Shown here: positions 13,226 through 59,306 of the stretch, one piece after another
Layout of the letters: each line of letters opens with the position of its first letter
Position numbering within the stretch: position 1 is the first letter of the stretch
Source of the DNA: a virus
Lineage: Duplodnaviria; Heunggongvirae; Uroviricota; Caudoviricetes
Length of the DNA stretch: 64,000 bases
Virus record (IMG/VR): IMGVR_UViG_2648501839_000008
Direction: 5' to 3' (one strand)
Notes under the pieces: generated by a model
The model's database searches: none
Told to the model about the DNA's origin: nothing
The model's input: only the letters and a program-made list of their open reading frames with translations
Program-made: the position numbers and the translations under genes

Positions 13226-15131
13226 AGCTGCGCCCCTCTTTAACTTCCAGAGTAATAGTTTCGCGGAACCATGACTTCATCTCTTTATGGGAGATAATCA
13301 GCACAGTGCCCCGTTCGCGAGCTTTGGACTCCAGAATACCCATGAGGCGTTCAAGACCGGCTGTATCGAGTGCATCGTCAATTTCGTCGCCGATAAACAA
13401 ATCGATGTTTTTACTCGCCCGGTTACTGACCAGATCTTGCAATGCCAAAGAACACGCAATGCGAACCTTCCGCTTCTCACCACCAGAGAGGGTCTGGAAC
13501 GACTTACTTGAACCTTTCTTCTGCACACTAATGTTGAATTTGTCGCGATACTCACCTTTTTTAGTGACATCCATCGTCGACCACTCAGCAGTAATATTCC
13601 CGTCAGACAACGTATTGAGATACTCGGCTGTGCGTGTATTCAGGAAAGGCGTAACAGAGGTCAAAATATGAGAACGCACCCCGGCAGGAGAGTAGACCTG
13701 ACGAGCTTTTTCCAATAGCAACGTTTGTTCCTGAATAGCCTTCAACTCATCTTTTAAGGACTTGAAGGTAGACTTACTGGATACCAGGTTATCTTCGTGT
13801 CTGGCGATAAGAGCAATAAACGGATTAATCTCTTTTGATATACGATCGACCTCAGTACGAGCACGAGTAACAAGAGACTCAATAGCAACAACCTCCTTCT
13901 CACGATGACGCAAAGATGAGAGTTGTTTAGTAAGTTCTTCAATCCGGGCAATGATAGCCGTTACATCAGGTGTCGTTTTAACAAGGGCAGACTCAATGCT
14001 TAACGCCTTCTCAAGATTCGTTTTGTGTTTAGCCATTGCCTCTGCAAGTGTCTTCGCCTGACCAATTTCCTGACGTGCTTGTTCAATGAAATTCTCCTTC
14101 ACCGTTGATAGATCTTCTTCGCAGTAGGCTTTGCCACAAGTAGGGCATGGTGATCCTACTTTAGTACCAACCTCTTCTGCTTTGGTCTTAAAATTGCGCG
14201 CGCGGCTCATTGCATCAGCCTGACTATTTTCTGTAGCTTTGATGCTTGCCCGAATATCAGTTATCGCACCACGCACTTTGAGCAACTTGGCGTCATGTTC
14301 TTCTTTTGAGGCTAACTTTTTGCGCTCACTTTCGATTGCCTTCTCGGTATCACGGATCTGTTCGGGAAGAGTGCGGATCTCAAGTTCAACTTCCGTTAAC
14401 TCAACTTCGGCACTTGCCAGCCCGGCCAGGGCATCGTCATAACGTTTAGAACGCTCTTGTTCCCATGATTCAGAGGAGGCTTTCGCGGACTCAATTTCTG
14501 ACTGTGTTGCCTCAATGGTCGAGATTGTCGACTCCAATTTGGTTTTAACCACGTCCATACGTGCGGCAGCTGCGTTAGCTCGTTCACGAGCAATAGCGTA
14601 GGCGCGTGTCAGTCTGTCAACGCCAGCGGCTTCTTCTACGATGGTTTTGAGGTTTTTGTCGGACATTCCAGGTAGATCTGGCATAGCTTCTTGGCTTGCA
14701 TAGATGGAAGCCATGAAAACCTCTTTAGATGCACCGATCAGACGTTCGACGAACTCTTGCGTCAGCGCATCTTTGCCTTTCGTCATATCGCCGTCTTCAC
14801 CACGAACGATAAGCCGATTTTTGAACTCTTTGTGTTTACGGTGACGAATGATCGCATATCTCTTGCCTTCATCCTCGATGGTTACTGCAACACGACAGTT
14901 CTTTTCATGGTCGGTAGACAACACATCGTCACCATTCACACCATGAGCTGTTTCGCCATAAAGACACCACATCAGGCTATTCATTAGCGTTGACTTTCCA
15001 GAGCCATTACTTGATGCGGAGCTATCATCACTATTAACACCCTGAATGAGCACTAAACCACGCTGCTCTAACTCGACCTCCGCGCTGGCGATAGCCATAA
15101 AATTCTCAACCTGGAGCTTTAAAAACTTCAT
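13215..15131 (-). CDS. sbcC: SbcC/Rad50-like recombination ATPase
   Basis: N-terminal Walker A (GSGKSTLMNSLMWCLYG), long central coiled coil with CPTCG zinc hook, C-terminal LSGGEKR signature and D-loop. Confidence 0.85.
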   Translation of the reverse strand: MKFLKLQVENFMAIASAEVELEQRGLVLIQGVNSDDSSASSNGSGKSTLMNSLMWCLYGETAHGVNGDDVLSTDHEKNCRVAVTIEDEGKRYAIIRHRKHKEFKNRLIVRGEDGDMTKGKDALTQEFVERLIGASKEVFMASIYASQEAMPDLPGMSDKNLKTIVEEAAGVDRLTRAYAIARERANAAAARMDVVKTKLESTISTIEATQSEIESAKASSESWEQERSKRYDDALAGLASAEVELTEVELEIRTLPEQIRDTEKAIESERKKLASKEEHDAKLLKVRGAITDIRASIKATENSQADAMSRARNFKTKAEEVGTKVGSPCPTCGKAYCEEDLSTVKENFIEQARQEIGQAKTLAEAMAKHKTNLEKALSIESALVKTTPDVTAIIARIEELTKQLSSLRHREKEVVAIESLVTRARTEVDRISKEINPFIALIARHEDNLVSSKSTFKSLKDELKAIQEQTLLLEKARQVYSPAGVRSHILTSVTPFLNTRTAEYLNTLSDGNITAEWSTMDVTKKGEYRDKFNISVQKKGSSKSFQTLSGGEKRKVRIACSLALQDLVSNRASKNIDLFIGDEIDDALDTAGLERLMGILESKARERGTVLIISHKEMKSWFRETITLEVKEGRSYVV

Positions 15132-15360
15132 ATAACACCTTTGATACCGTGTGTTAGCTTTTGACCTTCTTTCAATCTGAACTCCGTATGCGCCGGGAAG
15201 GATCTGCGCCTCAATATGCCTTTTCTGGTTAACCTTCCAAGATAAAACGCTACGGGATTTCCTTGTGGCGGGTAGGGCTTGTGAAACATCACCGTCTGGC
15301 CTCGTTCAAGTCTTTTCATCGTGATGGCAAAGTCTCGAAAGCTCCCATAACGACTTTGCC

Positions 15361-16446
15361 TCACACAGCCTCCGAACTCTCCGCTTCGGTGAGGATTTCC
15401 TGACACAAAATATCCAACTTGCTCAGATCAAATCCGCCGTCAGTATCGTGGACAATCTTGCAATAAGCGGATACCGACTCTCCCAAGCTATCGATTTTGC
15501 TGGTTTCCGTTGTGCTTGCTGTCCCTTCCATCATTGATGACTTACGGATGAAGTTGCACACGACACCTTTTGCACCCATTGTTTTGAGGATGTTCTGGTA
15601 CTTAATGCCTTCTTCATCGTTCTCAATTACGGCGCGGAAACGCACGTAGTTGCCGCGAATTTGGTCATCGGCAACATAATCTTCCAGGTTAATGAATTTA
15701 GGCGCACTGGTTTCGTAGTGACTGAAACTGCCGTCCGGGTTTACGATCATGTAACCAGCCAGAGATCCAACATCTCCCCAATTTTGATGGGTCAGCGCAC
15801 CGACACTGATAACTCCAGGAATGACCTCTTTGTGGTTGTGGTAATGCCCACTAAGCACGAGACGAAAGCCGATATCCTTTAACTCCTGCGCATCGATACC
15901 GACGTCAGGCATTGTTGGAATGGCTTTGTTAATGGATGTATGGATAACAACGTCATGATTATCACCTTCTACGATCTTACGTAATGCTTTCAGATCGCTG
16001 ATAAGCTCTGCATGATTGTTACGCCAGCTAATCAGGTGGACAGTCACATCACCAATTTTTATTGAATGTGGGCGCTTGCCACATACGATTACCACGCCGA
16101 TAGAACTCAGCGATGCTGCTGCGTTGGCGCTATATACTGAATCGTTGGTTTCAAGATCGTGATTACCGGCCAGCATTACTACTGTCAGATCAAGCTCGTT
16201 GATAATCCACTTGTACGTTTCAGTTACGTAATGCAAAACAGAAGGGGACACAGTCCCTCGGACGTGAAATGTATCACCGGCAACCAACATGTACTTACAA
16301 CCGGCCTTCTTCATGGCGATGGCTGCTTCTTTCGTTGCTTCCAACTGTATTTCAAGTCTGGAGTTAAGCCCCTCAGCGTTCGTCGTGGAGAACGCATCCC
16401 ATTTGTGGTAGTGGCAGTCAGAAATGACGCCGTATGGCAAAGTCAT
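15361..16446 (-). CDS. sbcD: SbcD/Mre11-like nuclease (calcineurin-like phosphoesterase)
   Basis: ISDCHYH, VAGDTFH and LAGNHDLE metallophosphatase motifs; conserved initiation box directly upstream of ATG 16446. Confidence 0.85.
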   Translation of the reverse strand: MTLPYGVISDCHYHKWDAFSTTNAEGLNSRLEIQLEATKEAAIAMKKAGCKYMLVAGDTFHVRGTVSPSVLHYVTETYKWIINELDLTVVMLAGNHDLETNDSVYSANAAASLSSIGVVIVCGKRPHSIKIGDVTVHLISWRNNHAELISDLKALRKIVEGDNHDVVIHTSINKAIPTMPDVGIDAQELKDIGFRLVLSGHYHNHKEVIPGVISVGALTHQNWGDVGSLAGYMIVNPDGSFSHYETSAPKFINLEDYVADDQIRGNYVRFRAVIENDEEGIKYQNILKTMGAKGVVCNFIRKSSMMEGTASTTETSKIDSLGESVSAYCKIVHDTDGGFDLSKLDILCQEILTEAESSEAV

Positions 16447-16661
16447 GTGTTTTTCCTTTGTGGTTATTTTGATACAAATTTTAAGAGCAATGAGAAGGTA
16501 AACAACTATGCATAACGGTATGTTAGGAATGAAACGAGCGACTTAATATACAAAATTTATAAGTAAGTATATACCTATTTATTGTGACGCAACTTTGCTT
16601 GTCTGTATGACTAAAAATAAGACAGGATCACTGTAGAACGCTATGAGAGCTATTTTGAGGA

Positions 16662-16682
16662 GGCGTAGATTCTATCTACGCC
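16662..16682. terminator. Hairpin downstream of gene 16701..17345
   Basis: GGCGTAGAT-TCT-ATCTACGCC inverted repeat. Confidence 0.4.
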
Positions 16683-16700
16683 AATATGCGATCTGGAGGG

Positions 16701-17345
16701 TTACAGCGCGTCAGTGGGCTTTTTACGCGCTGCGTTTATGCTTATGACGCCAGCTTTTGGACGTGGGTCAACAAGGTTAAGCTCTTCTTCACTGTGGTAT
16801 TCGAGGTCGAACTCACGTTTTACATGTCTGATGTAGATTGCGGTGAGCTGGCTATCTTTGGTCAGGAAGTGTCCGTAGGATTTACGGATCACTTCTTCTA
16901 CCTTTTCGAGTTTCTCACCACCCATACAGAGATGATTAAACCGGCTGTGTTTACGCAACATTTCGTCTACTGGACCTGAGTAAATTTTGTCTACTTTCCC
17001 AAAACGGATGATTTTCCCTGTGTCTGCGGATACAAGGCAAATCAGCTTGTCTGGTGATAAACGATCTCGCCACGTCACACCTGAACGGAGTGTGTTGAAG
17101 TAGGGGGCATCCAATCCGATGATCGGTTTACGAAATGCGAGCAATGGAACGTACCTGATGCAACTGTTTAAATGAAAATTCACACCAGCCTTATCAAGTT
17201 TAATTCTGGTTTCGTAGATCGGGCACTTCGCCGCTATACCGCAGATGTCACAAAGCAACTTCTGCTTATTCAGGTTGGAATTTGATTCGATAGTGTAGGA
17301 GCCGTCTTCAAGACGACGAACCCAGCGCGTGCGTTTTAGATCCAT
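16701..17345 (-). CDS. Hypothetical protein
   Basis: 214-aa ORF, Cys-containing; function unknown. Confidence 0.55.
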   Translation of the reverse strand: MDLKRTRWVRRLEDGSYTIESNSNLNKQKLLCDICGIAAKCPIYETRIKLDKAGVNFHLNSCIRYVPLLAFRKPIIGLDAPYFNTLRSGVTWRDRLSPDKLICLVSADTGKIIRFGKVDKIYSGPVDEMLRKHSRFNHLCMGGEKLEKVEEVIRKSYGHFLTKDSQLTAIYIRHVKREFDLEYHSEEELNLVDPRPKAGVISINAARKKPTDAL

Positions 17346-17423
17346 ATGTCATTTTTCTGTGATTGTTAGCCGAGGCAACGATAACCCACTAGGTGCGCCG
17401 AAGGTAGTAAATGCCTGTTTTAA

Positions 17424-17510
17424 TTATTCACATATCCACAGGATAGATCCTAATAAAGAGATCCATAGATAGATCCTTGTATAGATCAAATAAGATCCCC
17501 GATCGCTGTA
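17424..17510. promoter_or_regulatory. Origin-like region: two tandem DnaA boxes followed by a cluster of about six GATC sites
   Basis: TTATTCACA (17424-17432) and ATATCCACA (17432-17440) match the DnaA box TTATNCACA; GATC recurs about six times over the next 70 bp. Confidence 0.6.
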
Positions 17511-17544
17511 AGCCGCGCCACGACTGGTCTGAAGCCATGTTCAT

Positions 17545-17646
17545 GTATGCTGCCAGCGGTAATTGATAGTCTGTCAACGGTTCGCCGTATGCTGCCAACT
17601 GTTTTTGGTATGCTGCCAGCGGCAAATCAAGTATGCTGTCAGCGGT
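17545..17646 (+). repeat. Upstream iteron set: four direct 16-bp repeats
   Basis: Copies of GTATGCTG(C/T)CAGCGGT at 17545, 17587 (degenerate), 17608 and 17631, all in one orientation. Confidence 0.85.
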
Positions 17647-17666
17647 TGAATGACAAAGGTGTCCAC

Positions 17667-18761
17667 ATGTCCACAAAAAATAAAAAAGGTAAAAATAACA
17701 AAGAAGTAGAAGATAATCTCGACAACTTTGAAGAAGGTTCCCTTGAATTGTACACAGGGGAACTTGTCCCTAATAGCAACAATACAGTCCAACCAATTGC
17801 GTTGATGCGGCTGGGGTTGTTCGTGCCCACGCTCAAGGGGACAAAATACAGCAAGCGTAACAAGCCAAATGAGATCGATGCTTCAAAGGAGCTTGTTCAG
17901 CTCGAAGTAGCCCGTTCTGAAGGCTATTCCGATATCAAGATAACCGGTCCTCGTCTCGACATGGATCATGATTTCAAAACGTGGGTGGGCGTTGTGCGTT
18001 CGCTGGCAGAATACGGCGAACCTAACGGTCGTGTCGAGTTAAGCATCACGAAATTTGCGAAGTTTTGTGGCTATCCATCGTCACAGATCCGCAAAACACT
18101 CCGCGACCGGCTTACAAACAGTCTTTTGAAGATCATGCGTACAACTCTGTCTTTCCAGAGAACGTATGAAGAAAAGAACGTCGACGGCTCTAACAAGATC
18201 TCGCTTCTGATGGTGCACCTCATCAATAGCGTGGACTACAACGAGCAGAAAGATACGGTGGTGTTCTATGCAGAACCGAAGCTGGCCGAACTATATCGCT
18301 TTGACCATAAGGTTCTTTTGCAGTTAAAGGTTATCAATAAGCTACCACGCAAAGAAACAGCACAGGCTCTGTACACCTTCATCGAAAGTCTTCCAACCAA
18401 GCCTGCGCCGGTATCGCTTGCTCGATTGCGTGCGCGACTCAATTTGAGTAGCAGGAATGTCAGCTCGCAGAATCAGACTATACGTAACGGCTTAAAAGCT
18501 CTCCAAGATTTGGGCTATCTCGAATACAGCGAGATTAAGCGTGGGCGGTCGATCTATATCCAGATTCACAGCCGCAATCCAAAACTCAAAGTCGCACCGC
18601 CAAAACCTGAAGACATCGAACCCAAAAAACCAGATGAGAAAGCTGGGGAAATTGATGCCAAACAGAACATTATCAACAAGATAACCGAACTTTCGCAGAA
18701 TTTGACGCCTGAAAATATCAAGATGATTGAGATCCTTTCCAATAGTCTCAAACTGCTTTGA
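17667..18761 (+). CDS. repA: Plasmid replication initiator RepA (P1 RepA-like)
   Basis: NNTVQPIALMRLGLFVP, ITGPRLDMDHDFKTW and YTFIESLP match P1 RepA as recalled. Start set at ATG 17667; the ORF-track start at 17547 would translate the iterons. Confidence 0.85.
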   Translation: MSTKNKKGKNNKEVEDNLDNFEEGSLELYTGELVPNSNNTVQPIALMRLGLFVPTLKGTKYSKRNKPNEIDASKELVQLEVARSEGYSDIKITGPRLDMDHDFKTWVGVVRSLAEYGEPNGRVELSITKFAKFCGYPSSQIRKTLRDRLTNSLLKIMRTTLSFQRTYEEKNVDGSNKISLLMVHLINSVDYNEQKDTVVFYAEPKLAELYRFDHKVLLQLKVINKLPRKETAQALYTFIESLPTKPAPVSLARLRARLNLSSRNVSSQNQTIRNGLKALQDLGYLEYSEIKRGRSIYIQIHSRNPKLKVAPPKPEDIEPKKPDEKAGEIDAKQNIINKITELSQNLTPENIKMIEILSNSLKLL

Positions 18762-48238: not shown

Positions 48239-49942
48239 TTAATTATTAAGCAATCTGCTCACACGTAGTTTGTTAAGACTTGATCTAGAGGCCAGTTTCG
48301 TTAATGCACCTATTGCTTTATTCGTGATTTTTTGCTGTTCTTCTGTTAGTTCTTGCATACTTTTGAATCTGAGCAACCCCTTTCTCACTAAATCCAAAGC
48401 ATCCTGATTGCGGGATAGTATCCACTTTAAATAATCATCTTCAGAGAAACTGTTAAGATATGCTATGTCACTATGATTAAATTTGCCTTCAATTATTTTG
48501 TATAAAACATTCTCTAAATTAGTCTCTTCAGGCTTCTTATCCATCAATTTTTTTTGAATTAGCAGACCTAACTTTTCGTTACCAAATATCTCTACATACA
48601 AATTCCGAAAAGCAGTATAAGCATCATCTTGGCTAACAAAGGCATCTGCATATGCCTCTATATAACTATCACAATCAATCTCCAATCTATTTAAGATATC
48701 AATCAAGCCTATGAAGTGAGCAACAGGTATGTGTGAAAGATTGTCGTTAATTACACATTTTATCTTAGAAATAAACTCAGATTCATTGTCCTTGAATGAG
48801 TCACTAAAAATATCCCAAACATTGTTAACATCACATAAAGCCTTGTGTTCTTTATATTGTTTATTTTTTTCTTCTATTATACCTCGAATATTGCTTTCAG
48901 TAGAAAGATAACCATTCTTGAGATAAAAATCTATGTCATCATCGAAAGCAATTTCCGCTCGTTCATAAATAACATCAAGACTATTAATAAATGAATATAC
49001 AGAATCATCCTTTTTATCATCTAACATGTAATCAAATACATGTATGTTTTTAATTGATTCTTTAAACAAGGCATAATCAACACCTGGAACACCAGAATAG
49101 TAAACCACTGAAAACAGAACCAATCTATTGATAAAACTTTCTCTAACCTTATCCTCTGCCAAGCTTAGCTCATTCCTAAGATTAACCAGAGATGTTTTTA
49201 TTTTATTTAATATACGGATATTTTTAATGCCTAAGTCATTTGCTAAGACTTTTAACAAAAGAAAATCAGAATCAGTTTCATAAAAAACTTTACGTAAGTT
49301 CTTCTCAGGCGTAGGATCGTATTTTATTTCGACATCAATTACTTTTTCTCTGTACTCTAAAAACTGTTTTTTTGCAGTTTCATCATGTAAATTATCTTCA
49401 TTTAAAATTAGAACAACTTTGCAACCTTTTCTTCTTGCTAATTCATCAATTACCCCCATAATTTCTTTAACTTCTAGCGAATTACCTTTTCTTTCAACAT
49501 CATCAATACAAACCAAATAATTATTAACAAATTTATACTCAAGAGATGACAGCAGGTTATCTGTTTTGAACCCAAAAAAATCGTTCTTTCCGAAATGTAT
49601 TAAAAATTTTGACAAGGAGTTGTATTTCAACCATCCCCAAAACCCATTTCTATAACGAATCATAGTTCGATCCGTTTCAGATAAAATTAGTTCTTTATAT
49701 TTCTTTTCATTAATTGGTGTGGCACAATGATAAAGAGCTTTTTTAATATCACCAATAGAGTTAACCCCAAACAAAGAAACATACGAATATGCATTAAAAT
49801 CTAATCCTTCAGAATGCTTAGTATAAAAACTATTCCAATAATGAGTTTTACCAACGCCCCAATCTCCTTTTATGACGGCAACCCGATGATCTGAAACTAG
49901 AAAATTTTTTAGAAATGATTCTATCGATTCCATTAGTATCAA
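48239..49942 (-). CDS. KAP-family P-loop NTPase
   Basis: N-terminal Walker A in VAVIKGDWGVGKTHYW, Walker B VCIDD; 567 aa with markedly lower GC than flanking genes. Confidence 0.75.
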   Translation of the reverse strand: MILMESIESFLKNFLVSDHRVAVIKGDWGVGKTHYWNSFYTKHSEGLDFNAYSYVSLFGVNSIGDIKKALYHCATPINEKKYKELILSETDRTMIRYRNGFWGWLKYNSLSKFLIHFGKNDFFGFKTDNLLSSLEYKFVNNYLVCIDDVERKGNSLEVKEIMGVIDELARRKGCKVVLILNEDNLHDETAKKQFLEYREKVIDVEIKYDPTPEKNLRKVFYETDSDFLLLKVLANDLGIKNIRILNKIKTSLVNLRNELSLAEDKVRESFINRLVLFSVVYYSGVPGVDYALFKESIKNIHVFDYMLDDKKDDSVYSFINSLDVIYERAEIAFDDDIDFYLKNGYLSTESNIRGIIEEKNKQYKEHKALCDVNNVWDIFSDSFKDNESEFISKIKCVINDNLSHIPVAHFIGLIDILNRLEIDCDSYIEAYADAFVSQDDAYTAFRNLYVEIFGNEKLGLLIQKKLMDKKPEETNLENVLYKIIEGKFNHSDIAYLNSFSEDDYLKWILSRNQDALDLVRKGLLRFKSMQELTEEQQKITNKAIGALTKLASRSSLNKLRVSRLLNN

Positions 49943-51188: not shown

Positions 51189-51941
51189 TTAATCTTTTAG
51201 ATATAAACCAACTGGGGTTCTTGTTTTGCGGGAGATGATAAGTACGATAAATTTCTCAACGTTAACTTGCACCTTATTTGGAAACCAAGAGCTTAATTCT
51301 GGATCAAGTAACAATCCTCTGTTCCACGGCAAAAAGCCGGTTTCTTTTCCCATCCCATATTCGCCTAACACATCCTCGAACGTCTCAGTTTTTGCGTTGT
51401 AAATTCTTACATCACCTGTTCGCATTAATGGACCGGCCCAGATTTTTGCGCCAGGAATGGTCTGATTGTAATCACAGACAAGATGTTCGTACCAATGAAG
51501 GAGGAAGCGATACGTGAGGTTGCACAGTCCCCTTTGCCTTATTGCTCTTTCTGTCTCAACACCTGCAATCTGATAGCAGTCAATCTCTACCCCATCCTCG
51601 ATGAATGTGTATTCACGCAATGCAATTCTGCCTGCTATCGTGTTTCTGCTCTGATCGAGCATGTCGGAACGCAGAATTGCTTGAATAATGTCCGAATCAG
51701 ACATTCCATCTTCGCCTCTGTCCAGAATGAAGTCCATCAGTTCACCCTGATCTCGTGCTCCAACTTTCTCCATCAGGATATACAGACAGATATCATCATC
51801 AGGCTCGATAATGGTTATTTCGGATATTTTGAAAAGCGATGCTTCGTTGATGAGGTAGCCAAAACGTGAAACGCGAGTTTCCCCACGGTGAGGAAACTCA
51901 TAAAGATTTTTAGAGTATGTGCGTTCTAGTGTAGGTGCCAT
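51189..51941 (-). CDS. Hypothetical protein
   Basis: 250-aa ORF. Confidence 0.6.
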   Translation of the reverse strand: MAPTLERTYSKNLYEFPHRGETRVSRFGYLINEASLFKISEITIIEPDDDICLYILMEKVGARDQGELMDFILDRGEDGMSDSDIIQAILRSDMLDQSRNTIAGRIALREYTFIEDGVEIDCYQIAGVETERAIRQRGLCNLTYRFLLHWYEHLVCDYNQTIPGAKIWAGPLMRTGDVRIYNAKTETFEDVLGEYGMGKETGFLPWNRGLLLDPELSSWFPNKVQVNVEKFIVLIISRKTRTPVGLYLKD

Positions 51942-52309
51942 CTTAGAGCAGTACCATCAGCAGTTGTATTGCTGACAATGCTACCATGAGTATTAAGAAA
52001 GCGGCGAATTGCACTCTCAATAATTTCAGAGAATTGGTCACTAAACCGTGCTAATTCAGGGTATTGTTTTGCTGGCTTCACAATGAAACGAACACGATCG
52101 TTCAGGAAAATCGCTTCAGCCAACGGTTTTACACTGGCACCAGCATTCTCAACATCGTCTTTGAAAGTTACGATGAAGCGAGTGTCTTTTGGCGCAGTCG
52201 CATCGTTGTTAAGTTTACGCACCTCAAGTTTGCGCTTATTCAGCACATGAGTTGCGATAACACTCGTGCAATCGCGAATTGTTTGTATAGAACGTTTTTC
52301 GTTCAGCAT
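51926..52309 (-). CDS. Hypothetical protein
   Basis: 127-aa ORF. Confidence 0.55.
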   Translation of the reverse strand: MLNEKRSIQTIRDCTSVIATHVLNKRKLEVRKLNNDATAPKDTRFIVTFKDDVENAGASVKPLAEAIFLNDRVRFIVKPAKQYPELARFSDQFSEIIESAIRRFLNTHGSIVSNTTADGTALRWHLH

Positions 52310-52486: not shown

Positions 52487-52717
52487 TTATGGTACTTTTC
52501 TGCCCCATCCACACAATCGCTCCCCTATCATATTGTGAAAAAGTACCTCTCTTTCAGTCTCTTCGGTCATGAGATCATCACGGCTGATGTATAGCGGTGT
52601 AGCCGCATCGCAGAAAAGCACACCAGCGGGTTGAGGCTTAATCACGCAACCACTTATTGTGCAACTCATGATGAACAGTAGAAGCATCCTTGCTCCGTAA
52701 CTCATCAAGTGTTTCAT
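52487..52717 (-). CDS. Putative o-spanin (outer-membrane lipoprotein) embedded in the i-spanin gene
   Basis: Alternate-frame ORF with signal sequence and lipobox (LLLFIMSCTISGC), overlapping the 3' third of the i-spanin ORF. Confidence 0.45.
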   Translation of the reverse strand: MKHLMSYGARMLLLFIMSCTISGCVIKPQPAGVLFCDAATPLYISRDDLMTEETEREVLFHNMIGERLCGWGRKVP

Positions 52718-52889
52718 TTTTGACGTCCAATGTGCTTTGAAGTCGTTTCCTGTCTTCCTGTTTTGCCTTCTCTTCCATTGCTCGTCGCGCCGCATTTCCG
52801 CCCATCGTGTAAGCGCCGACCAGAACGAAAAGAACGGCAGCCAGCGTAATCAAAGCAACTTTTAGCTTTGTCATCAGGCTGCCTAGCAT
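52638..52889 (-). CDS. Putative i-spanin
   Basis: N-terminal TM helix followed by a charged coiled-coil region; 83 aa, short for an i-spanin. Confidence 0.45.
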   Translation of the reverse strand: MLGSLMTKLKVALITLAAVLFVLVGAYTMGGNAARRAMEEKAKQEDRKRLQSTLDVKNETLDELRSKDASTVHHELHNKWLRD

Positions 52890-52890
52890 A

Positions 52891-53583
52891 TTAGACCATC
52901 CCTTTCTGGTGTCTTCTTACCTGCGACCAGGCAATGAATCCGGCCACAACAATAGTGGCAATGCCGAAGATGATGCGTACTGTATCCCCGCTAGAGATAT
53001 GACCTTGTGCCTTATCCATAGCAGCGGAAACCTGCGGCATAACATCGGCCAGCTGCGCCAGACCAATACCTGCTGTAACAGTTGCGCCTGCAGTTTCTTT
53101 AGTTACAGGAACAGCCTTCACGGTTTTCACCGGCTTAACGACGCCAGCTCGACGCAGACCTTCCTCAATAACTTCTGCCGCATACCAGGTGTTCAGCGTT
53201 TTTAGCGGACCTCGCCCATTCTCATGGCGAATGATTGCCTCAACCAAAGGTCGAAGAATGTCGTAATCATGCAGATCGATGATCATGTCTGCGGTTACAC
53301 CAACGGCTTTAGACACCTCATTAATGTAGGCGTCAGTGTTGTTTTCATTCGGCGGTGCCCAACGTTCAATAACTTCACGAATGGTATCGATACTTGAGCC
53401 GTCTTTTGCGCGACGTTTGTCGTGGTAGGTAATTAGAGTCACCGCCAGCGCACGAATCCCCCAAACAGGGTCTTTAAACGTGCAAAAGCGCGGTTCGTCT
53501 GGATTCGCAATCAGACCTTGCCACGGTGATCCTTTATCAAGATTACCGGGGTTATTATTACGAATGCCTCTCGGAGTCTTCAT
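52891..53583 (-). CDS. Conserved phage protein with C-terminal TM anchor, possible lysis-cassette component
   Basis: GIRNNNPGNL motif near the N-terminus and a C-terminal hydrophobic helix; start ATG 53583 has AGGAG upstream. Enzymatic class unresolved. Confidence 0.4.
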   Translation of the reverse strand: MKTPRGIRNNNPGNLDKGSPWQGLIANPDEPRFCTFKDPVWGIRALAVTLITYHDKRRAKDGSSIDTIREVIERWAPPNENNTDAYINEVSKAVGVTADMIIDLHDYDILRPLVEAIIRHENGRGPLKTLNTWYAAEVIEEGLRRAGVVKPVKTVKAVPVTKETAGATVTAGIGLAQLADVMPQVSAAMDKAQGHISSGDTVRIIFGIATIVVAGFIAWSQVRRHQKGMV

Positions 53584-53596
53584 CCTTGATCTCCTG

Positions 53597-53932
53597 TTAT
53601 TGCAGTCCATTTTTTACGCCATACGCGGCTAACCCCAAAAGCAGTGCAGTAATAATGAACGACGTTATTTTAGAAACAATGCCGCCAAAGAACCCACTGG
53701 AGATGGAATCTAACCGGTTAAGGAGTTTGTCCAGGTTGGAGTGTTGAATACTATGTTGCGCCGGGGTCATATCACCAAAGTAGGTTTTCAGCTGATCATT
53801 GACCTCCTGGCCAATTTCTTCACGTAGCTCTTTACCTAATTTGCCAACAACCTCCCGAGCAACGATCGCGGCAATACGCTCAACTTGCTCTGTTGTAACG
53901 CCCGCCATCTCGTTCGACATGTTTTCCTCCAT
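53597..53932 (-). CDS. Putative holin-like membrane protein
   Basis: 111 aa with a single C-terminal TM helix, immediately upstream of the lysis-type genes. Confidence 0.35.
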   Translation of the reverse strand: MEENMSNEMAGVTTEQVERIAAIVAREVVGKLGKELREEIGQEVNDQLKTYFGDMTPAQHSIQHSNLDKLLNRLDSISSGFFGGIVSKITSFIITALLLGLAAYGVKNGLQ

Positions 53933-54001
53933 GAAAAGTCAAATCGGGATGGCGGATTTATATCACATTTCACCTTCTTGTTGTAGGTGTGTACTTACTT
54001 A

Positions 54002-54232
54002 TCATTCAACATTGCAACGGACTGATGAGAAAGCACCTACTCCAACCCATCGCCAGTTATAGATGCTACCCGCTTTGTATAAGGTATAGTCGTTCACTTT
54101 TTTAACAGCATATATGGGTATGACTGTCTCCTGTCCACCAATGATAGCCTCACCATAACATATGGGTGTCGGCAATTTCTGACAGCCAGTAAGAGAGAGA
54201 ACAACAGCTATTGTTAGAAATAATCTTTTCAT
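54002..54232 (-). CDS. Small lipoprotein, candidate receptor-blocking superinfection-exclusion factor
   Basis: 76 aa, lipobox LSLTGC; located immediately downstream of the tail-fibre genes. Confidence 0.45.
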   Translation of the reverse strand: MKRLFLTIAVVLSLTGCQKLPTPICYGEAIIGGQETVIPIYAVKKVNDYTLYKAGSIYNWRWVGVGAFSSVRCNVE

Positions 54233-54242
54233 CGTTTACTCA

Positions 54243-54851
54243 TCAGTTATACAGATTTCTATTTATTACCGGTACTCTGCCATTTACGCTAAAACTATGG
54301 CCGCCATTAAGTTGGTTTACGAATATGGAACTAACAGTATTTCCATATGCCGCATATCCATAAACCATTGTCATGGCCCCGCCCGGTACTGGAACCGCGA
54401 ACACATTTGCATATGTTGGGATTATCGCTGGCGGGTAATCAAAAACATGCCCTCCAGAACTGTTCCACTCCGTATTATTAAGAAAGGTAAATGAAAGTGG
54501 GATATTTGCCGTATTATAGATCTCCTCTCCTCGCGCATTGAAAAAACTCATGCCCCAAGTTTCTTTTTTGGCTATACCTTTCGAAAATACGTATATCGTG
54601 GCACTAGAGTCGCTACCCTGACCTCCGAAACTGTAAATCACCTGGTTGTTACGCACTATTCTGTTGGCTATTAATGAAACAGCTTTCGAATAGGCAACAA
54701 AAATCATCGGTGAACGATCTGGAGATATTTGGGTGTTAAACTCTGTCCCGCCAGACAAAGAAACAACCTGCTTTCTCTGAAAAACGATAGGAGACAAAGA
54801 AGGAGACATCCAGACCTTCCCGTCAGATCGATATATCTTGCTTCCGTACAT
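54243..54851 (-). CDS. Hypothetical protein, tail-fibre associated
   Basis: 202-aa Ser/Gly/Asn-rich ORF, translationally coupled (TAATG) to the upstream 84-aa ORF. Confidence 0.55.
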   Translation of the reverse strand: MYGSKIYRSDGKVWMSPSLSPIVFQRKQVVSLSGGTEFNTQISPDRSPMIFVAYSKAVSLIANRIVRNNQVIYSFGGQGSDSSATIYVFSKGIAKKETWGMSFFNARGEEIYNTANIPLSFTFLNNTEWNSSGGHVFDYPPAIIPTYANVFAVPVPGGAMTMVYGYAAYGNTVSSIFVNQLNGGHSFSVNGRVPVINRNLYN

Positions 54852-55105
54852 TATTTTTGAAAAACCAATATGTTTAAATTGCCACTAGCTCCAGACCATG
54901 AAATGGTATTTCCAGAAACCGTAAGACTTGTGTATTTCCCATTGGTTACGTCCATTATGTAATAGTCGATTCCCAATCCCGCCTCAACCTCATATGTTCT
55001 ACTTCCAGAACCAGAGGGAGTAAAATAATCGAGGTAATAAACAGGGGCCAACGCATCGACCATCTCCTGTCTTGATGGCGACCATACCTGTGCACCATAG
55101 CTCAT
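54851..55105 (-). CDS. Hypothetical protein, tail-fibre associated
   Basis: 84-aa ORF directly downstream of the tail-fibre gene. Confidence 0.5.
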   Translation of the reverse strand: MSYGAQVWSPSRQEMVDALAPVYYLDYFTPSGSGSRTYEVEAGLGIDYYIMDVTNGKYTSLTVSGNTISWSGASGNLNILVFQK

Positions 55106-55165: not shown

Positions 55166-56788
55166 TTATTCTTTAGGTGAATTTAACTTCGTTTCAAGCT
55201 CCTCAACCCTTTTGGTCAATTGCTGAATATGATGAATGAGTGGTACAACCAAACGCTCATACATCACTCCTTCAGCGACCATACCATTTGAGGAAATATC
55301 TTCTGGAGAATCATTATTTGTTGGTTCACGCCAATGGACATATTGCGGGGCAATCTCACCAACCTCTTCAGCAATAAGGCCGTAATACCCCCAATCCTTT
55401 CGGTCACCTCGACAAATTGAACGATACCAAACAGGTCTTAATGACAAAAGTTCATCAGCATATCGATCTTGTAATGTTTCAATATCCTTTTTATAGCGCC
55501 TTGAAGATGTTGAACGCCAAACTGTATTGATACCTGGGTTTGGATCAATGTACATATTGGCACCGCTAGTAGTTGTGCCAATATCCCATATAGCAAACCC
55601 TCCACTACCGCCTGATTTGACAACCAGTGTTTCAGCAATAATATCCAGGTTGCCACTATAGCCTGTCAGTGATGATCTGCTTGCATAGGAACTTAGAAGG
55701 TTTGTTACCTCTGTTTTCGTATAAGCATTAAGGTTAGCCGCAGTCAAAGTAATATCGGCAGAGCCATCAAACGCCACACCAGCAATTTTCCTTGCTGTCT
55801 GCAATTTTGTGGCTGTTGCGGCATTACCAGTAGTATTCTGATTACCGGTTGTATTCACACCAGGGATTGAATCCTTAGCAGTATATACCTGCGCCCACGC
55901 TGACCATGCCGCATCTGTGGTATCTCTTCGTGAGCGAATGAAAACTGGCGCATGTGCACCGCTCGTACCACTCCAGCCAATAAGCAACTCGCCCTCACCA
56001 GCAGCACTCGCACCTTTCATGTGCAATACGTTGCCATACGTGGTCGGGTAGCTATTGTTGTACGCCTCGTACATTTGAATGCCAGCAGTGCCTTGAGTAG
56101 AGCCGCTTAATGCCGTAACTCGGCCACGAGATACCAGTGTATTAATGTTGATATCGCCTGAGCCATCAAACTTAACACCATTGATGTTTCTCGCTGTTTG
56201 CAACTTCGTAGCTGTTGAAGCATTACCGTTCAAACTACCATTTACGCCACCAGTCACATTTAGTCCATTACCAATTGATACCGCACCGCTGGTATTATTA
56301 ATTGTAATAGGTCGCAAACCGTTCCATGAACCTAATGTGTCTCCTGATGCTGTTAGCATGAAATATGTGTTCGATCCATCATTACGGATAAAGAACCCAA
56401 AGCTACCGTAAGCAATGCGGAAACCATTTGCATATTTTGAAATGATCTCGCCAGAAGATGTCAAACCTCCAGATAATGTACCACCGGTAAGAGGTAATGC
56501 ACCGACATCAGAGGCTGTTGGTTTGTTTTTCGTGTTATATACTCTTCGCCATCCCGGAGAATAATCTGTGCCATTAAATACATAGATAAACTCCGCATTA
56601 GTGAGAGCACCAGAGACACTCGTCGTTGTGGCCGTTGTTATACGGATCGTATAATTGTTTGAGCTACTACCGTTATTAAATACCTCTATAACAGCTCCTG
56701 CCAATGGAATAACGCCACAACCAGTTTCACTATTTGGTATGGTTGCACTATTGGCATAGGCCCACGCACTTTGTGTTAAATGCTCCAT
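55166..56788 (-). CDS. Tail fibre protein with C-terminal intramolecular-chaperone (peptidase S74-like) domain
   Basis: Two phage tail-fibre repeat units (GVNTTGNQNTTGNAATATKLQTAR.I.GV.FDGS) and a C-terminal region resembling autoproteolytic chaperone domains (SRRYKKDIETL...YGLIAEEV). Confidence 0.8.
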   Translation of the reverse strand: MEHLTQSAWAYANSATIPNSETGCGVIPLAGAVIEVFNNGSSSNNYTIRITTATTTSVSGALTNAEFIYVFNGTDYSPGWRRVYNTKNKPTASDVGALPLTGGTLSGGLTSSGEIISKYANGFRIAYGSFGFFIRNDGSNTYFMLTASGDTLGSWNGLRPITINNTSGAVSIGNGLNVTGGVNGSLNGNASTATKLQTARNINGVKFDGSGDININTLVSRGRVTALSGSTQGTAGIQMYEAYNNSYPTTYGNVLHMKGASAAGEGELLIGWSGTSGAHAPVFIRSRRDTTDAAWSAWAQVYTAKDSIPGVNTTGNQNTTGNAATATKLQTARKIAGVAFDGSADITLTAANLNAYTKTEVTNLLSSYASRSSLTGYSGNLDIIAETLVVKSGGSGGFAIWDIGTTTSGANMYIDPNPGINTVWRSTSSRRYKKDIETLQDRYADELLSLRPVWYRSICRGDRKDWGYYGLIAEEVGEIAPQYVHWREPTNNDSPEDISSNGMVAEGVMYERLVVPLIHHIQQLTKRVEELETKLNSPKE

Positions 56789-59306
56789 TATTTTGCAATA
56801 ACGTCACTAACTGTGCTGTTGTTATTGCTCCGCCATTACTTCCTGTAGTTAACCAACCAGTAGGAGATGCCGGGCAACCTATATTTGCTGGCGACAAGGA
56901 AATATTTGCCGAGCCGTCAAACGACACCCCATTGATAGTACGCGCAGTCTGCAACTTCGTTGCAGTAGCCGCGTTGCCCGTTGTATTCTGATTACCAGTC
57001 GTATTAACACCTGGCAAATTAATATTCGCAGTACCATCAAAGCTCACGCCGCCGATAGTTCTTGCCGTCTGAAGTTTTGTAGCAGTTGCAGCATTACCAG
57101 TGGTGTTCTGATTACCCGTAGTATTTACACCTGGAAGGTTGATATTTGCAGAACCGTCGAAACCAACTCCACCGATAGATCTTGCCGTCTGCAATTTCGT
57201 TGCTGTACTTGCATTACCATTTAATGTTCCGGTGATCCCACCAGTAACAGACAACGGACCTGAAACTGTTCCTCCGGTTGTTGGCAGTGCTCCAATATCT
57301 AACGGCGTCGGTTTCTGATGTGTGCTATACATCGTATAAACAACACCATCGGTAACGCTGGAAGGCTTACTCGCTGAATATGTTGGCGATGTATAAATAG
57401 AAACTGTCGCATTTGCAGTACAATCCCAATGGATATTTACACTAGTCGCATAATTGCCAATCTCAACGTAAATATCATATGTATCGCCGGATGTGTTGAT
57501 CCAGGCGAAATTCGTTAATCCGACGGCTGTACGCTTCCACAAAGCACCGGTAATCCCTTTGGGGTTTCCATTGCCTGCTCGTAGAACCAGTTCTGAAATG
57601 CCTGCCTGATGTGGGGAGCCGACGTTGTAACCAGCGCCACCAATCAATGCGATGTAAACGATGGAACTCGCTTGTGGCATGGTAACCGTAGCCAGTTTGA
57701 ACCACCCAGCCCCGCCAGAGAAAGACATCGTTACTGAATTTAAAGTACCAATATCTTTCGGCGTTAATGTGATATCCGCAGTCAGTGCTTTACCGTTAAC
57801 TTTTCGGTTAGATGGCACCCTGCTATTCGCATTGTCATTGGCTGCTTTAACTGCTTTTGGCGTTGCGGCCAGCGATTCACTGGTGCTGTCGACAGCACTG
57901 CTAAGTTTCACAACACCTTTGGTGGTAAGGCTTGCGTCTTCCATCGCAACGGCACCGGCAATCTCTTCAGCACGATCAGCGGCAGCTTCTGCACGGGTCG
58001 CAGCGGATTCAGCAGCAGCTTTGCTCTGAGATGCAGCCGTCGCACTGCCTGCCGCCTCTGTTGCTTTCGTGGATGCCGTTGAAGCACTCCCCTTCGCAGC
58101 TGATGCCTGCTTGGTCGCCTCATCTTTTGAAGCGGATGCCGAGGTGGCTGATGCAGACGCAGAACTTGCAGATTCAGCAGCTGCCTCTTTAGAGGAAGCG
58201 GCATTATCTTCAGAAGCCTTTGCATTTGTTTCAGAGGATTTTGCTGCCGATGCTGAATTTTTAGCGGCTGTAGCCTGATTCGTCGCCTCAGTCGCTTTTG
58301 CGGTAGCTGTTGTCGCTGACGACGACGCGCTTTCCGCAGATTTTCCTGCCGCAGTTGCACTTGATGAAGCACTATCCGCACTTGCTGAGGCTGCGCTTGC
58401 TGACGCTTCTGCCGCAGATTTCGAACTGTTTGCAGACGATGCACTCTGCCCGGCTGCCGTTTCAGATGCTTTTGCGTTTGTCTCTGACGCTTTTGCTGCC
58501 TTAGACGAATTTTCAGCTTCTGTTGCAAATGATGCAGCCGCGTTTGCACTCGATGAAGCGTTAGTCTCTGATGCTTTGGCTGCATCCTTAGATGCAGAGG
58601 CACTGGACGCAGATGTTGCTGCCTCCGATGCTTTGGTCGACGCTACAGACGCTGATTCTGCTGCCGCTAGATATGCTGATTCTGCGTTCGTTTCAGATTT
58701 TTTCGCAGCAGTTGCACTCGCACTTGCGGCACTTTGTGAGGATGCCGCAGCGGATGCACTTTGAGACGCTTGAGAGGCTTTTTCTCCAGCGGTATTGGCG
58801 CTTTCTGCTGCTGCGGCAGCACTGGCCGCCGCCTCACGAGCTTTGTCACCAGCGGCATCAATCGCGTCAGTGTTATTTTTATACCACTCAACGTTTTCGT
58901 TGTGCTCGTTGACGATCTGCATCAGCGGCTTAACGGTCACTTCTGTACCGTCTTCACGCTCGATTGTCACCTCATCCAGAGCAGTCAACCAACTACGCAT
59001 GGACTTGGAATCAGCCGACATACGCGACATTAGCGCGGTAAAGCGCGCGCTAAACTGTGTTAAGTCGCCTTCATAGGTAGTAATGATTCGGCACGGAACT
59101 TCAGACTGAGTTTCACCGGTATAAGGTTCTGAGAGAACAATGTTCGTATCGCTTGTTACGCGCTTGATCTCATACAGCTTATTGTCGGGGCCAATGACGA
59201 TCATCCCCGGCAACACACCATTAGCTGTTACGTTCCAGGCTGTCCCAACCCCAACCAGAGTATTACTACCCTGTGTAAATGTGATAGTACCTTCCCTGTA
59301 CCACAT
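56748..59306 (-). CDS. Side tail fibre protein (Stf-like) with Ala/Ser-rich repeats and three tail-fibre repeat units
   Basis: About 320 residues of KASETNA-type Ala/Ser low complexity, then three tandem tail-fibre repeat units; 3' end overlaps the next fibre gene by 41 nt. Confidence 0.8.
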   Translation of the reverse strand: MWYREGTITFTQGSNTLVGVGTAWNVTANGVLPGMIVIGPDNKLYEIKRVTSDTNIVLSEPYTGETQSEVPCRIITTYEGDLTQFSARFTALMSRMSADSKSMRSWLTALDEVTIEREDGTEVTVKPLMQIVNEHNENVEWYKNNTDAIDAAGDKAREAAASAAAAAESANTAGEKASQASQSASAAASSQSAASASATAAKKSETNAESAYLAAAESASVASTKASEAATSASSASASKDAAKASETNASSSANAAASFATEAENSSKAAKASETNAKASETAAGQSASSANSSKSAAEASASAASASADSASSSATAAGKSAESASSSATTATAKATEATNQATAAKNSASAAKSSETNAKASEDNAASSKEAAAESASSASASATSASASKDEATKQASAAKGSASTASTKATEAAGSATAASQSKAAAESAATRAEAAADRAEEIAGAVAMEDASLTTKGVVKLSSAVDSTSESLAATPKAVKAANDNANSRVPSNRKVNGKALTADITLTPKDIGTLNSVTMSFSGGAGWFKLATVTMPQASSIVYIALIGGAGYNVGSPHQAGISELVLRAGNGNPKGITGALWKRTAVGLTNFAWINTSGDTYDIYVEIGNYATSVNIHWDCTANATVSIYTSPTYSASKPSSVTDGVVYTMYSTHQKPTPLDIGALPTTGGTVSGPLSVTGGITGTLNGNASTATKLQTARSIGGVGFDGSANINLPGVNTTGNQNTTGNAATATKLQTARTIGGVSFDGTANINLPGVNTTGNQNTTGNAATATKLQTARTINGVSFDGSANISLSPANIGCPASPTGWLTTGSNGGAITTAQLVTLLQNNGAFNTKCVGLCQ
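56911..57250 (-). repeat. Three tandem DNA repeats of about 117 bp encoding tail-fibre repeat units
   Basis: Units at about 56911-57013, 57028-57133 and 57147-57250 are roughly 75-80 percent identical by eye; related copies at about 55770-55880 and 56160-56250 in the next gene. Confidence 0.7.

Follow-up and report, generated by a model that had tools for sequence, protein, structure and literature searches.

What does a 76-amino acid (aa) lipoprotein encoded between the tail-fiber and lysis genes of a phage-plasmid do, and on which host receptor would it act? This question is raised by the gene at 54002..54232 (minus strand) of IMG/VR virus record IMGVR_UViG_2648501839_000008, a 64,000-nucleotide (nt) stretch of Caudoviricetes DNA referred to here as the window. 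In an initial annotation, a small lipoprotein had been placed at this position, directly downstream of the tail-fiber genes, and likened to receptor-blocking lipoproteins of the T5 Llp or Cor type. The 4.4 kb around the gene are 97–99.7% identical to ~110-kb non-mobilizable Escherichia coli plasmids, with pRM13322 at 99.7%; more remote relatives are Salmonella phage SSU5 and the coliphages Cyrano and PhiR41_1. Judged by these relatives, the window is therefore an SSU5-like phage-plasmid of E. coli. The gene product is almost certainly a Cor-family exclusion lipoprotein, and there is a good likelihood that it acts by blocking an FhuA-type receptor.

The cor Gene and Its Product

The open reading frame (ORF) in the ORF listing of the window starts with ATG, includes its stop codon within 54002..54232 and specifies a 76-aa precursor (MKRLFLTIAVVLSLTGCQKLPTPICYGEAIIGGQETVIPIYAVKKVNDYTLYKAGSIYNWRWVGVGAFSSVRCNVE). 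PHROG 1119 ("Cor superinfection exclusion protein") matches residues 1–74 of this protein with E=3.6e-30, and the protein reaches 80.5 bits with NF047972, the NCBIfam equivalog for "phage exclusion lipoprotein Cor", whose curated cutoff is 31; residues 1–74 are aligned on profile positions 1–77 of 78. The protein also has the precursor size of the family (~75–80 aa) and its lipobox Cys near residue 16–18, and it keeps every one of the 20 columns that do not vary among ten aligned, diverse Cor proteins; these columns include the lipobox Cys17, Cys25, Cys73, and the motifs GG, IY, Y-x-AG, and NW-x-WVG. A tblastn search of the window protein against 50,697 phage records matched 194 records, mostly annotated as Cor or superinfection exclusion protein, with identities of 59% to the "Cor-like protein" SSU5_025, 58% to Cor of Sepvirinae Shiga toxin (Stx) podophages, ~47% to lambdoid HK/mEp Cor, 42–43% to N15 gene 24 Cor, and 28–34% to small lytic coliphages among the matches listed. 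In a 5.8-billion-protein database, a single-sequence search returned only three truncated Cor copies and a profile search returned 316 Cor relatives.

In many E. coli plasmids, pAVS0968-B among them, RefSeq names the identical ORF "cor: phage exclusion lipoprotein Cor" (WP_033803601.1); an older PLSDB gene table holds no gene at the cor position in E. coli plasmids, and no model of the PADLOC library matches Cor at E<=0.001. The curated hidden Markov models (HMMs), the motifs and the gene context together place the protein in the Cor family, so that the Llp- or Cor-like identity first proposed for it can be narrowed to Cor, with a predicted fold closest to that of T5 Llp. Neither cor nor its family is thus new; RefSeq and the type phage SSU5 already have the gene annotated. 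Among E. coli cor alleles the ratio of nonsynonymous to synonymous substitution rates (dN/dS) is 0–0.3, on small counts, and the changes are mostly synonymous; cor is under purifying selection. A chance ORF was rejected because of these HMM scores and dN/dS values.

The limits of the lipoprotein gene in the initial annotation coincide exactly with the ORF, and the lipoprotein signal that it had proposed to check for is present. The N-terminus (MKRLFLTIAVVLSLTGC) consists of a basic n-region with K2 and R3, an 11-residue hydrophobic core, and the lipobox L14-T15-G16-C17, which together define a signal peptide of the lipoprotein type (type II) spanning aa 1–16 (MKRLFLTIAVVLSLTG) with the cleavage point directly before Cys17. 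Signal peptide and lipobox occupy 54182..54232 (minus strand), and the codon of Cys17, the predicted lipidated first residue of mature Cor, lies at 54182–54184. The PROSITE pattern PS00013 fits this N-terminus as judged by eye, and the Pfam lipid-attachment model LPAM_1 matches residues 1–18 with E=0.0065, under its gathering score. According to the Lol sorting rule, a residue other than Asp after the lipidated Cys directs a lipoprotein to the outer membrane; the residue that follows Cys17 is Gln, and an outer-membrane location is therefore predicted. Lipidation of Cor on Cys17 and its residence in the outer membrane are thus inferred from the sequence of the N-terminus.

Predicted Structure of Mature Cor

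The mature domain, from Cys25 (54158–54160) to Cys73 (54014–54016), covers 54014..54160 on the minus strand and contains the invariant columns of the family. An AlphaFold2 (AF2) model of the mature 60-residue protein, built from a 92-sequence alignment, is all-beta with a predicted local distance difference test (pLDDT) score of 89.8. Mature Cor is accordingly predicted to be a small SH3-like beta barrel, which is probably clamped by an intramolecular Cys25–Cys73 disulfide. The model has the features of the Llp fold, a small beta barrel with disulfide-tied termini, and T5 Llp is its closest fold in structural alignment, at 14% sequence identity. The signal from Foldseek is weaker, with Llp at rank 31 and a TM-score of 0.55, and, among predicted viral structures, the top TM-scores of 0.81 and 0.70 belong to exclusion proteins and lipoproteins from T1-like and T5-like phages. 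A Cor profile searched against the PDB returned no Llp at E<=10, and sequence homology to Llp is not detectable.

In Llp, the Cys11–Cys58 disulfide ties the two ends of a protein that acts from the periplasmic side by reverse allostery, and this disulfide is described as common to Llp and Cor (PMC9586334); the corresponding cysteines of the window protein, at mature positions 9 and 57, parallel this pair. A common fold of Cor and Llp has been described for other Cor proteins (bioRxiv 10.64898/2026.03.26.714494; PMC13164509), and AlphaFold3 docks a T1-like Cor to FhuA from the periplasmic side (PMC13164509). One of these two reports states that experimental demonstration of the Cor mechanism is still pending (PMC13164509 or bioRxiv 10.64898/2026.03.26.714494). 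Cor of the window resembles Llp (PDB 8A60, 7QJF) in its similar length, predicted lipidated N-terminal Cys, predicted end-linking disulfide, and gene position near receptor-recognition genes. In contrast, llp is an early-expressed gene of T5, a strictly lytic phage, and the resemblance does not extend to the amino acid sequence.

The Three-Gene cor Cassette

The window carries one unbroken minus-strand block that consists of J, the lateral fiber gene, two small genes, cor, holin, endolysin, and Rz/Rz1. The placement of cor directly after the tail-fiber genes in the initial annotation therefore holds for the fiber region but not for the immediate neighbor, because two same-strand genes for proteins of 84 and 202 aa stand between the fiber gene and cor. 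The first, at 54851..55105, encodes the equivalent of N15 gp22 and belongs to PHROG 557 ("outer membrane protein", E=1.3e-24), and the second, at 54243..54851, encodes the equivalent of N15 gp23 and belongs to PHROG 425 ("membrane associated protein", E=5.5e-49). The products of N15 genes 22 and 23, the two genes directly 5' of N15 cor (gene 24), belong to PHROG 557 and PHROG 425 as well. Sequence identity is 28% between the 84-aa protein and N15 gp22 and 23% between the 202-aa protein and N15 gp23; the latter is also 31.6% identical, over 100% coverage, to a protein of coliphage tonijn. No signal peptide or transmembrane segment was found in either protein. The stop codon of the 84-aa gene overlaps the start codon of the 202-aa gene as TAATG, and only 10 base pairs (bp) separate the 202-aa gene from cor.

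The association of these genes is widespread. A gp22-like/gp23-like pair stands directly 5' of cor in 38 of 45 viral loci from IMG/VR and, across Enterobacterales, in 21 of the 24 bacterial genome loci with a full-length cor. The remaining seven viral loci belong to Stx phages; in five of them the pair is found ~3.2 kb downstream of cor, and the other two are not long enough for the pair to be seen. The trio is called the "cor cassette" in the literature, and in the BASEL collection the full cassette occurs only in FhuA-dependent phages, which account for all ten carriers (PMC13164509). A variable locus downstream of gpJ has been proposed to encode a detachable receptor-binding protein together with its cognate exclusion protein (PMC8594841; bioRxiv 10.64898/2026.04.02.716166). 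By analogy with this literature, the two genes upstream of cor probably encode tail-tip proteins with a receptor-binding or accessory role; for the 202-aa protein, an AF2 model, obtained from a 6-sequence alignment, has a low confidence (pLDDT 32.8).

Two minor observations concern the same genes. The 202-aa gene is annotated as 188 aa in RefSeq and in SSU5, and this start is probably 14 codons too short, because homology to SSU5 DNA and to N15 gp23 spans all 202 aa and because the longer frame forms the TAATG overlap. In Sepvirinae Stx podophages, cor follows a fiber gene and a gp38-like adhesin gene, and the gp22-like/gp23-like pair stands 3.2 kb further on, adjoining lom; the cassette is therefore split there. 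Cor of these podophages, at 58% identity, is the closest outside the SSU5-like elements; the split arrangement is seen, among other loci, in phage vB_EcoP_phi367 (6986–7213 and 10454–11355).

The Cassette as an Exchangeable Module

Between the window and SSU5, the holin is 95% identical but Cor only 59%, with 69% for the 84-aa gene and 75% for the 202-aa gene, which identifies the cassette as divergent and exchangeable. The cor region is present in 68 of the 170 complete E. coli genomes that match a probe for the cor–holin junction (53930–54250), and Cor is encoded, according to tblastn, in 73 of the 311 Escherichia PLSDB plasmids that match the region. E. coli SSU5-like elements carry two host-recognition versions at the slot between fiber and holin. 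In the cassette-bearing version, J is followed by a 1385-aa S74-chaperone fiber, the 84-aa and 202-aa proteins, cor, and holin, and in the cassette-less version, seen in Cyrano and two inspected plasmids (NZ_CP062814.1 and NZ_CP017847.1), J is followed by a different, 1342-aa P1 S-like fiber and then directly by the holin.

Proposed Mechanism and Receptor

A possible course of action can be proposed for Cor of the window. After export, the 76-aa precursor would receive its lipid on Cys17 and be cleaved by signal peptidase II, and the mature 60-residue protein could then bind, as a lipid-anchored plug, to the periplasmic face of the terminal outer-membrane receptor of the phage, most probably the TonB-dependent transporter FhuA. 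Binding of Cor may lock the receptor in a state that is unusable by phage receptor-binding proteins, which would stop superinfection as well as the loss of progeny virions on cell debris. Through late co-expression, Cor could protect the infected cell together with its progeny, as happens in T1 and T5. The cassette would then represent a mobile module that pairs a key, the 84-aa and 202-aa proteins, with cor, the device that disables its lock. By analogy with the homologs of N15, phi80, HK022, and T1, and with T5 Llp as a structural relative, receptor blocking is the most likely mechanism of Cor, and FhuA, which is suggested by the family, is on balance its probable target.

Several points weigh against this explanation. 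The nearest Cor relatives outside the SSU5-like elements are those of the Sepvirinae Stx podophages (58% identity), in which cor follows a gp38-like adhesin gene, and the receptor reported for these podophages is BamA, not FhuA. For SSU5 itself, PMC12312913 cites the lipopolysaccharide (LPS) core, bound via the fiber, as the receptor instead of FhuA. A literature search returned no paper on this allele or on any SSU5-like cor and none testing FhuA in these elements, and it yielded no relevant paper that connects Cor or FhuA with SSU5 or with phage-plasmids. Co-variation of the tail tip with the cassette was considered and rejected, because the last 450 aa of J in the window share 98.4% identity with those of the cassette-less Cyrano. 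A consensus scan of the cor flanks found no sigma-70-like promoter or terminator, although a weak or internal promoter could escape it, and a role of the window cor in lysogenic conversion is unsupported by these flanking sequences.

In view of the LPS-core report and the Stx podophage relatives, FhuA is therefore held only as the probable target, and a minor chance is left to another outer-membrane protein. The protein would then be a Cor-family exclusion lipoprotein of an SSU5/Sepvirinae-type subfamily directed at a different TonB-dependent transporter, a gp38-recognized porin, or BamA, which we regard as unlikely. This reading is favored by the two closest relatives, SSU5 (59%) and the Sepvirinae Stx podophages (58%), both of which carry cor after a fiber gene and a gp38-like adhesin gene; by a linker that is three residues shorter after the lipid-anchored Cys; and by an identity of only 28–34% to Cor of the small lytic coliphages listed, whose proteins mostly bear the name Cor or super-infection exclusion protein. 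In T5-like and Tempevirinae phages, moreover, Cor-like proteins have been reported with users of BtuB (PMC13164509), and SSU5 is not reported to need FhuA. Against such a target stands the full three-gene cassette, which in BASEL phages accompanies only users of FhuA (PMC13164509). The full-length identity of 31.6% between the 202-aa protein and its tonijn counterpart, as well as a score far above the cutoff of NF047972, a curated equivalog, argue in the same direction.

Transcription Context

The gaps on both sides of cor are short, with 81 nt between cor and the holin, and this spacer contains no hairpin according to RNA folding (fold z-score 0.75). N15 cor, in contrast, is preceded at ~115 nt by a promoter-like site and followed by a strong terminator, in agreement with the expression of N15 cor known from lysogens. 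With short gaps and neither a promoter nor a terminator of its own, co-transcription of cor with the late fiber and lysis genes is the simplest reading. Since no separate promoter signal was detected, unlike in N15, the evidence favors a role in shielding newly released virions and the infected cell over one in shielding lysogens.

The missing promoter would also suit a cor that is a decaying or silent passenger without current function, as would a 17-bp frameshifting deletion in the adjacent fiber gene of the window copy and the presence of cor in a minority of E. coli SSU5-like plasmids. However, the cor ORF is intact and keeps all invariant residues of the family, the differences between alleles are mostly synonymous, and the three genes of the cassette are all undamaged and closely packed, with overlaps that suit translational coupling, which makes a passenger very improbable.

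The position of cor 81 nt upstream of the holin–endolysin–Rz/Rz1 genes, on the same strand and with no terminator between them, raises the further question of whether cor belongs to the lysis machinery, as an outer-membrane spanin subunit or a lysis regulator. The lysis cassette directly downstream of cor (52487..53932, minus strand) was assigned by PHROG 873, 1026, and 1275 and by the annotations of Cyrano and SSU5, and it comprises a holin-like gene (53597–53920 with the RefSeq start), the endolysin gene (52891–53610), and Rz (52638–52889) with an embedded Rz1-like lipoprotein gene within 52487–52795. A complete Rz/Rz1 pair (52487–52889; PHROG 1026 and 1275) is thus already present downstream, and the spanin reading was rejected because of this separate pair. 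Moreover, Cor matches no lysis or spanin family but only Cor, cor and its two partners adjoin tail genes and not lysis genes in N15, lambdoid phages, and bacterial prophages, and the same lysis genes are present without cor in Cyrano and other cassette-less relatives. A lysis function of cor is accordingly left with next to no probability. As a separate observation, ~74 nt just upstream of the holin (53930–54003) are kept at 86–96% identity even in cassette-less plasmids and may represent a regulatory element for the lysis genes.

Relation to Known Systems

The classical counterparts of the window protein are the Cor proteins of N15 (gene 24), phi80, HK022, mEp167, and T1, which have the same size, lipobox position, three cysteines, GG/IY/Y-x-AG/NW-x-WVG motifs, and two upstream partner genes; the identity to the N15 and lambdoid proteins is 42–47%. 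The window protein differs from these in its linker after the lipidated Cys, which is three residues shorter. Whereas the N15 cassette directly follows gpJ, that of the window follows the lateral fiber gene and abuts the holin, and the promoter-like site and terminator of N15 cor have no counterpart at the window cor. Its carrier, a ~110-kb SSU5-like phage-plasmid, is also unlike the classical Cor phages. Within the same phage-plasmid family, SSU5 (SSU5_025) and plasmid relatives of Enterobacter, Citrobacter, and Kluyvera show the identical slot (fiber, 84 aa, ~200 aa, cor, holin), although SSU5 possesses a gp38-like adhesin gene that is absent from the window and its Cor is only 59% identical. 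A further parallel in logic is offered by Rtp45 and related lipoproteins of LptD-targeting small siphophages, in which a small periplasmic lipoprotein encoded next to the receptor-binding protein blocks the phage's own receptor (PMC12685063); in that case the receptor is LptDE and the mechanism steric instead of allosteric.

No published receptor or exclusion study of cor in SSU5-like phage-plasmids was found in the literature. The distribution of cor suggests that about a quarter (73/311) to 40% (68/170) of E. coli SSU5-like phage-plasmids may use FhuA or a similar outer-membrane protein as terminal receptor and that induced cells would become refractory to T1-, T5-, and phi80-type phages, which would be relevant to phage-therapy cocktails and to competition between phage-plasmids. 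If the target is instead an outer-membrane protein other than FhuA, E. coli SSU5-like phage-plasmids would have two interchangeable host-recognition types, a fiber alone or an S74-chaperone fiber with a receptor-binding and exclusion cassette, and the cassette would point to a new receptor for a widespread phage-plasmid family.

Other Features of the Neighborhood

The lateral tail-fiber gene upstream of the cassette (55166..59306, minus strand) was recognized by Pfam Gp34_trimer and Peptidase_S74, the latter corresponding to its C-terminal S74 chaperone domain, and it is split in the window. Relative to pAVS0968-B and pRM13322, the 17-bp deletion (GTCATGGATTGCTCGAT) lies near 56769 (56748–56788), and the single 1385-aa ORF of pAVS0968-B is represented in the window by overlapping ORFs of 852 and 540 aa. 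Since the deletion splits the ORF, an intact side fiber may not be made from the window copy. The same deletion is found in IMGVR_UViG_2645727510_000006, which is 100% identical across the region. In pAVS0968-B, cor and its cassette are intact, and the J tail-tip gene is interrupted at 14488–17776 by the IS66-family element ISEc23; this copy is probably a defective phage.

On the far side of the lysis genes, two overlapping ORFs of 250 and 127 aa (51189–52309, minus strand) lie between the lysis genes and parA. Neither has a match in Pfam, NCBIfam, or PADLOC, and other family members carry different genes in this slot. The minus-strand gene at 48239–49942 encodes a P-loop NTPase of the KAP family (567 aa) that matches PDC-S49, a candidate defense system in PADLOC, with E=2.8e-22. 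In pAVS0968-B, a LEM-3-like GIY-YIG nuclease gene is located between helicase genes and parA, and in Cyrano a KacT toxin–antitoxin pair lies on the other side of parA, adjoining the lysis genes. Because these genes differ from element to element, the flanks of parA look like a variable accessory or defense hotspot.
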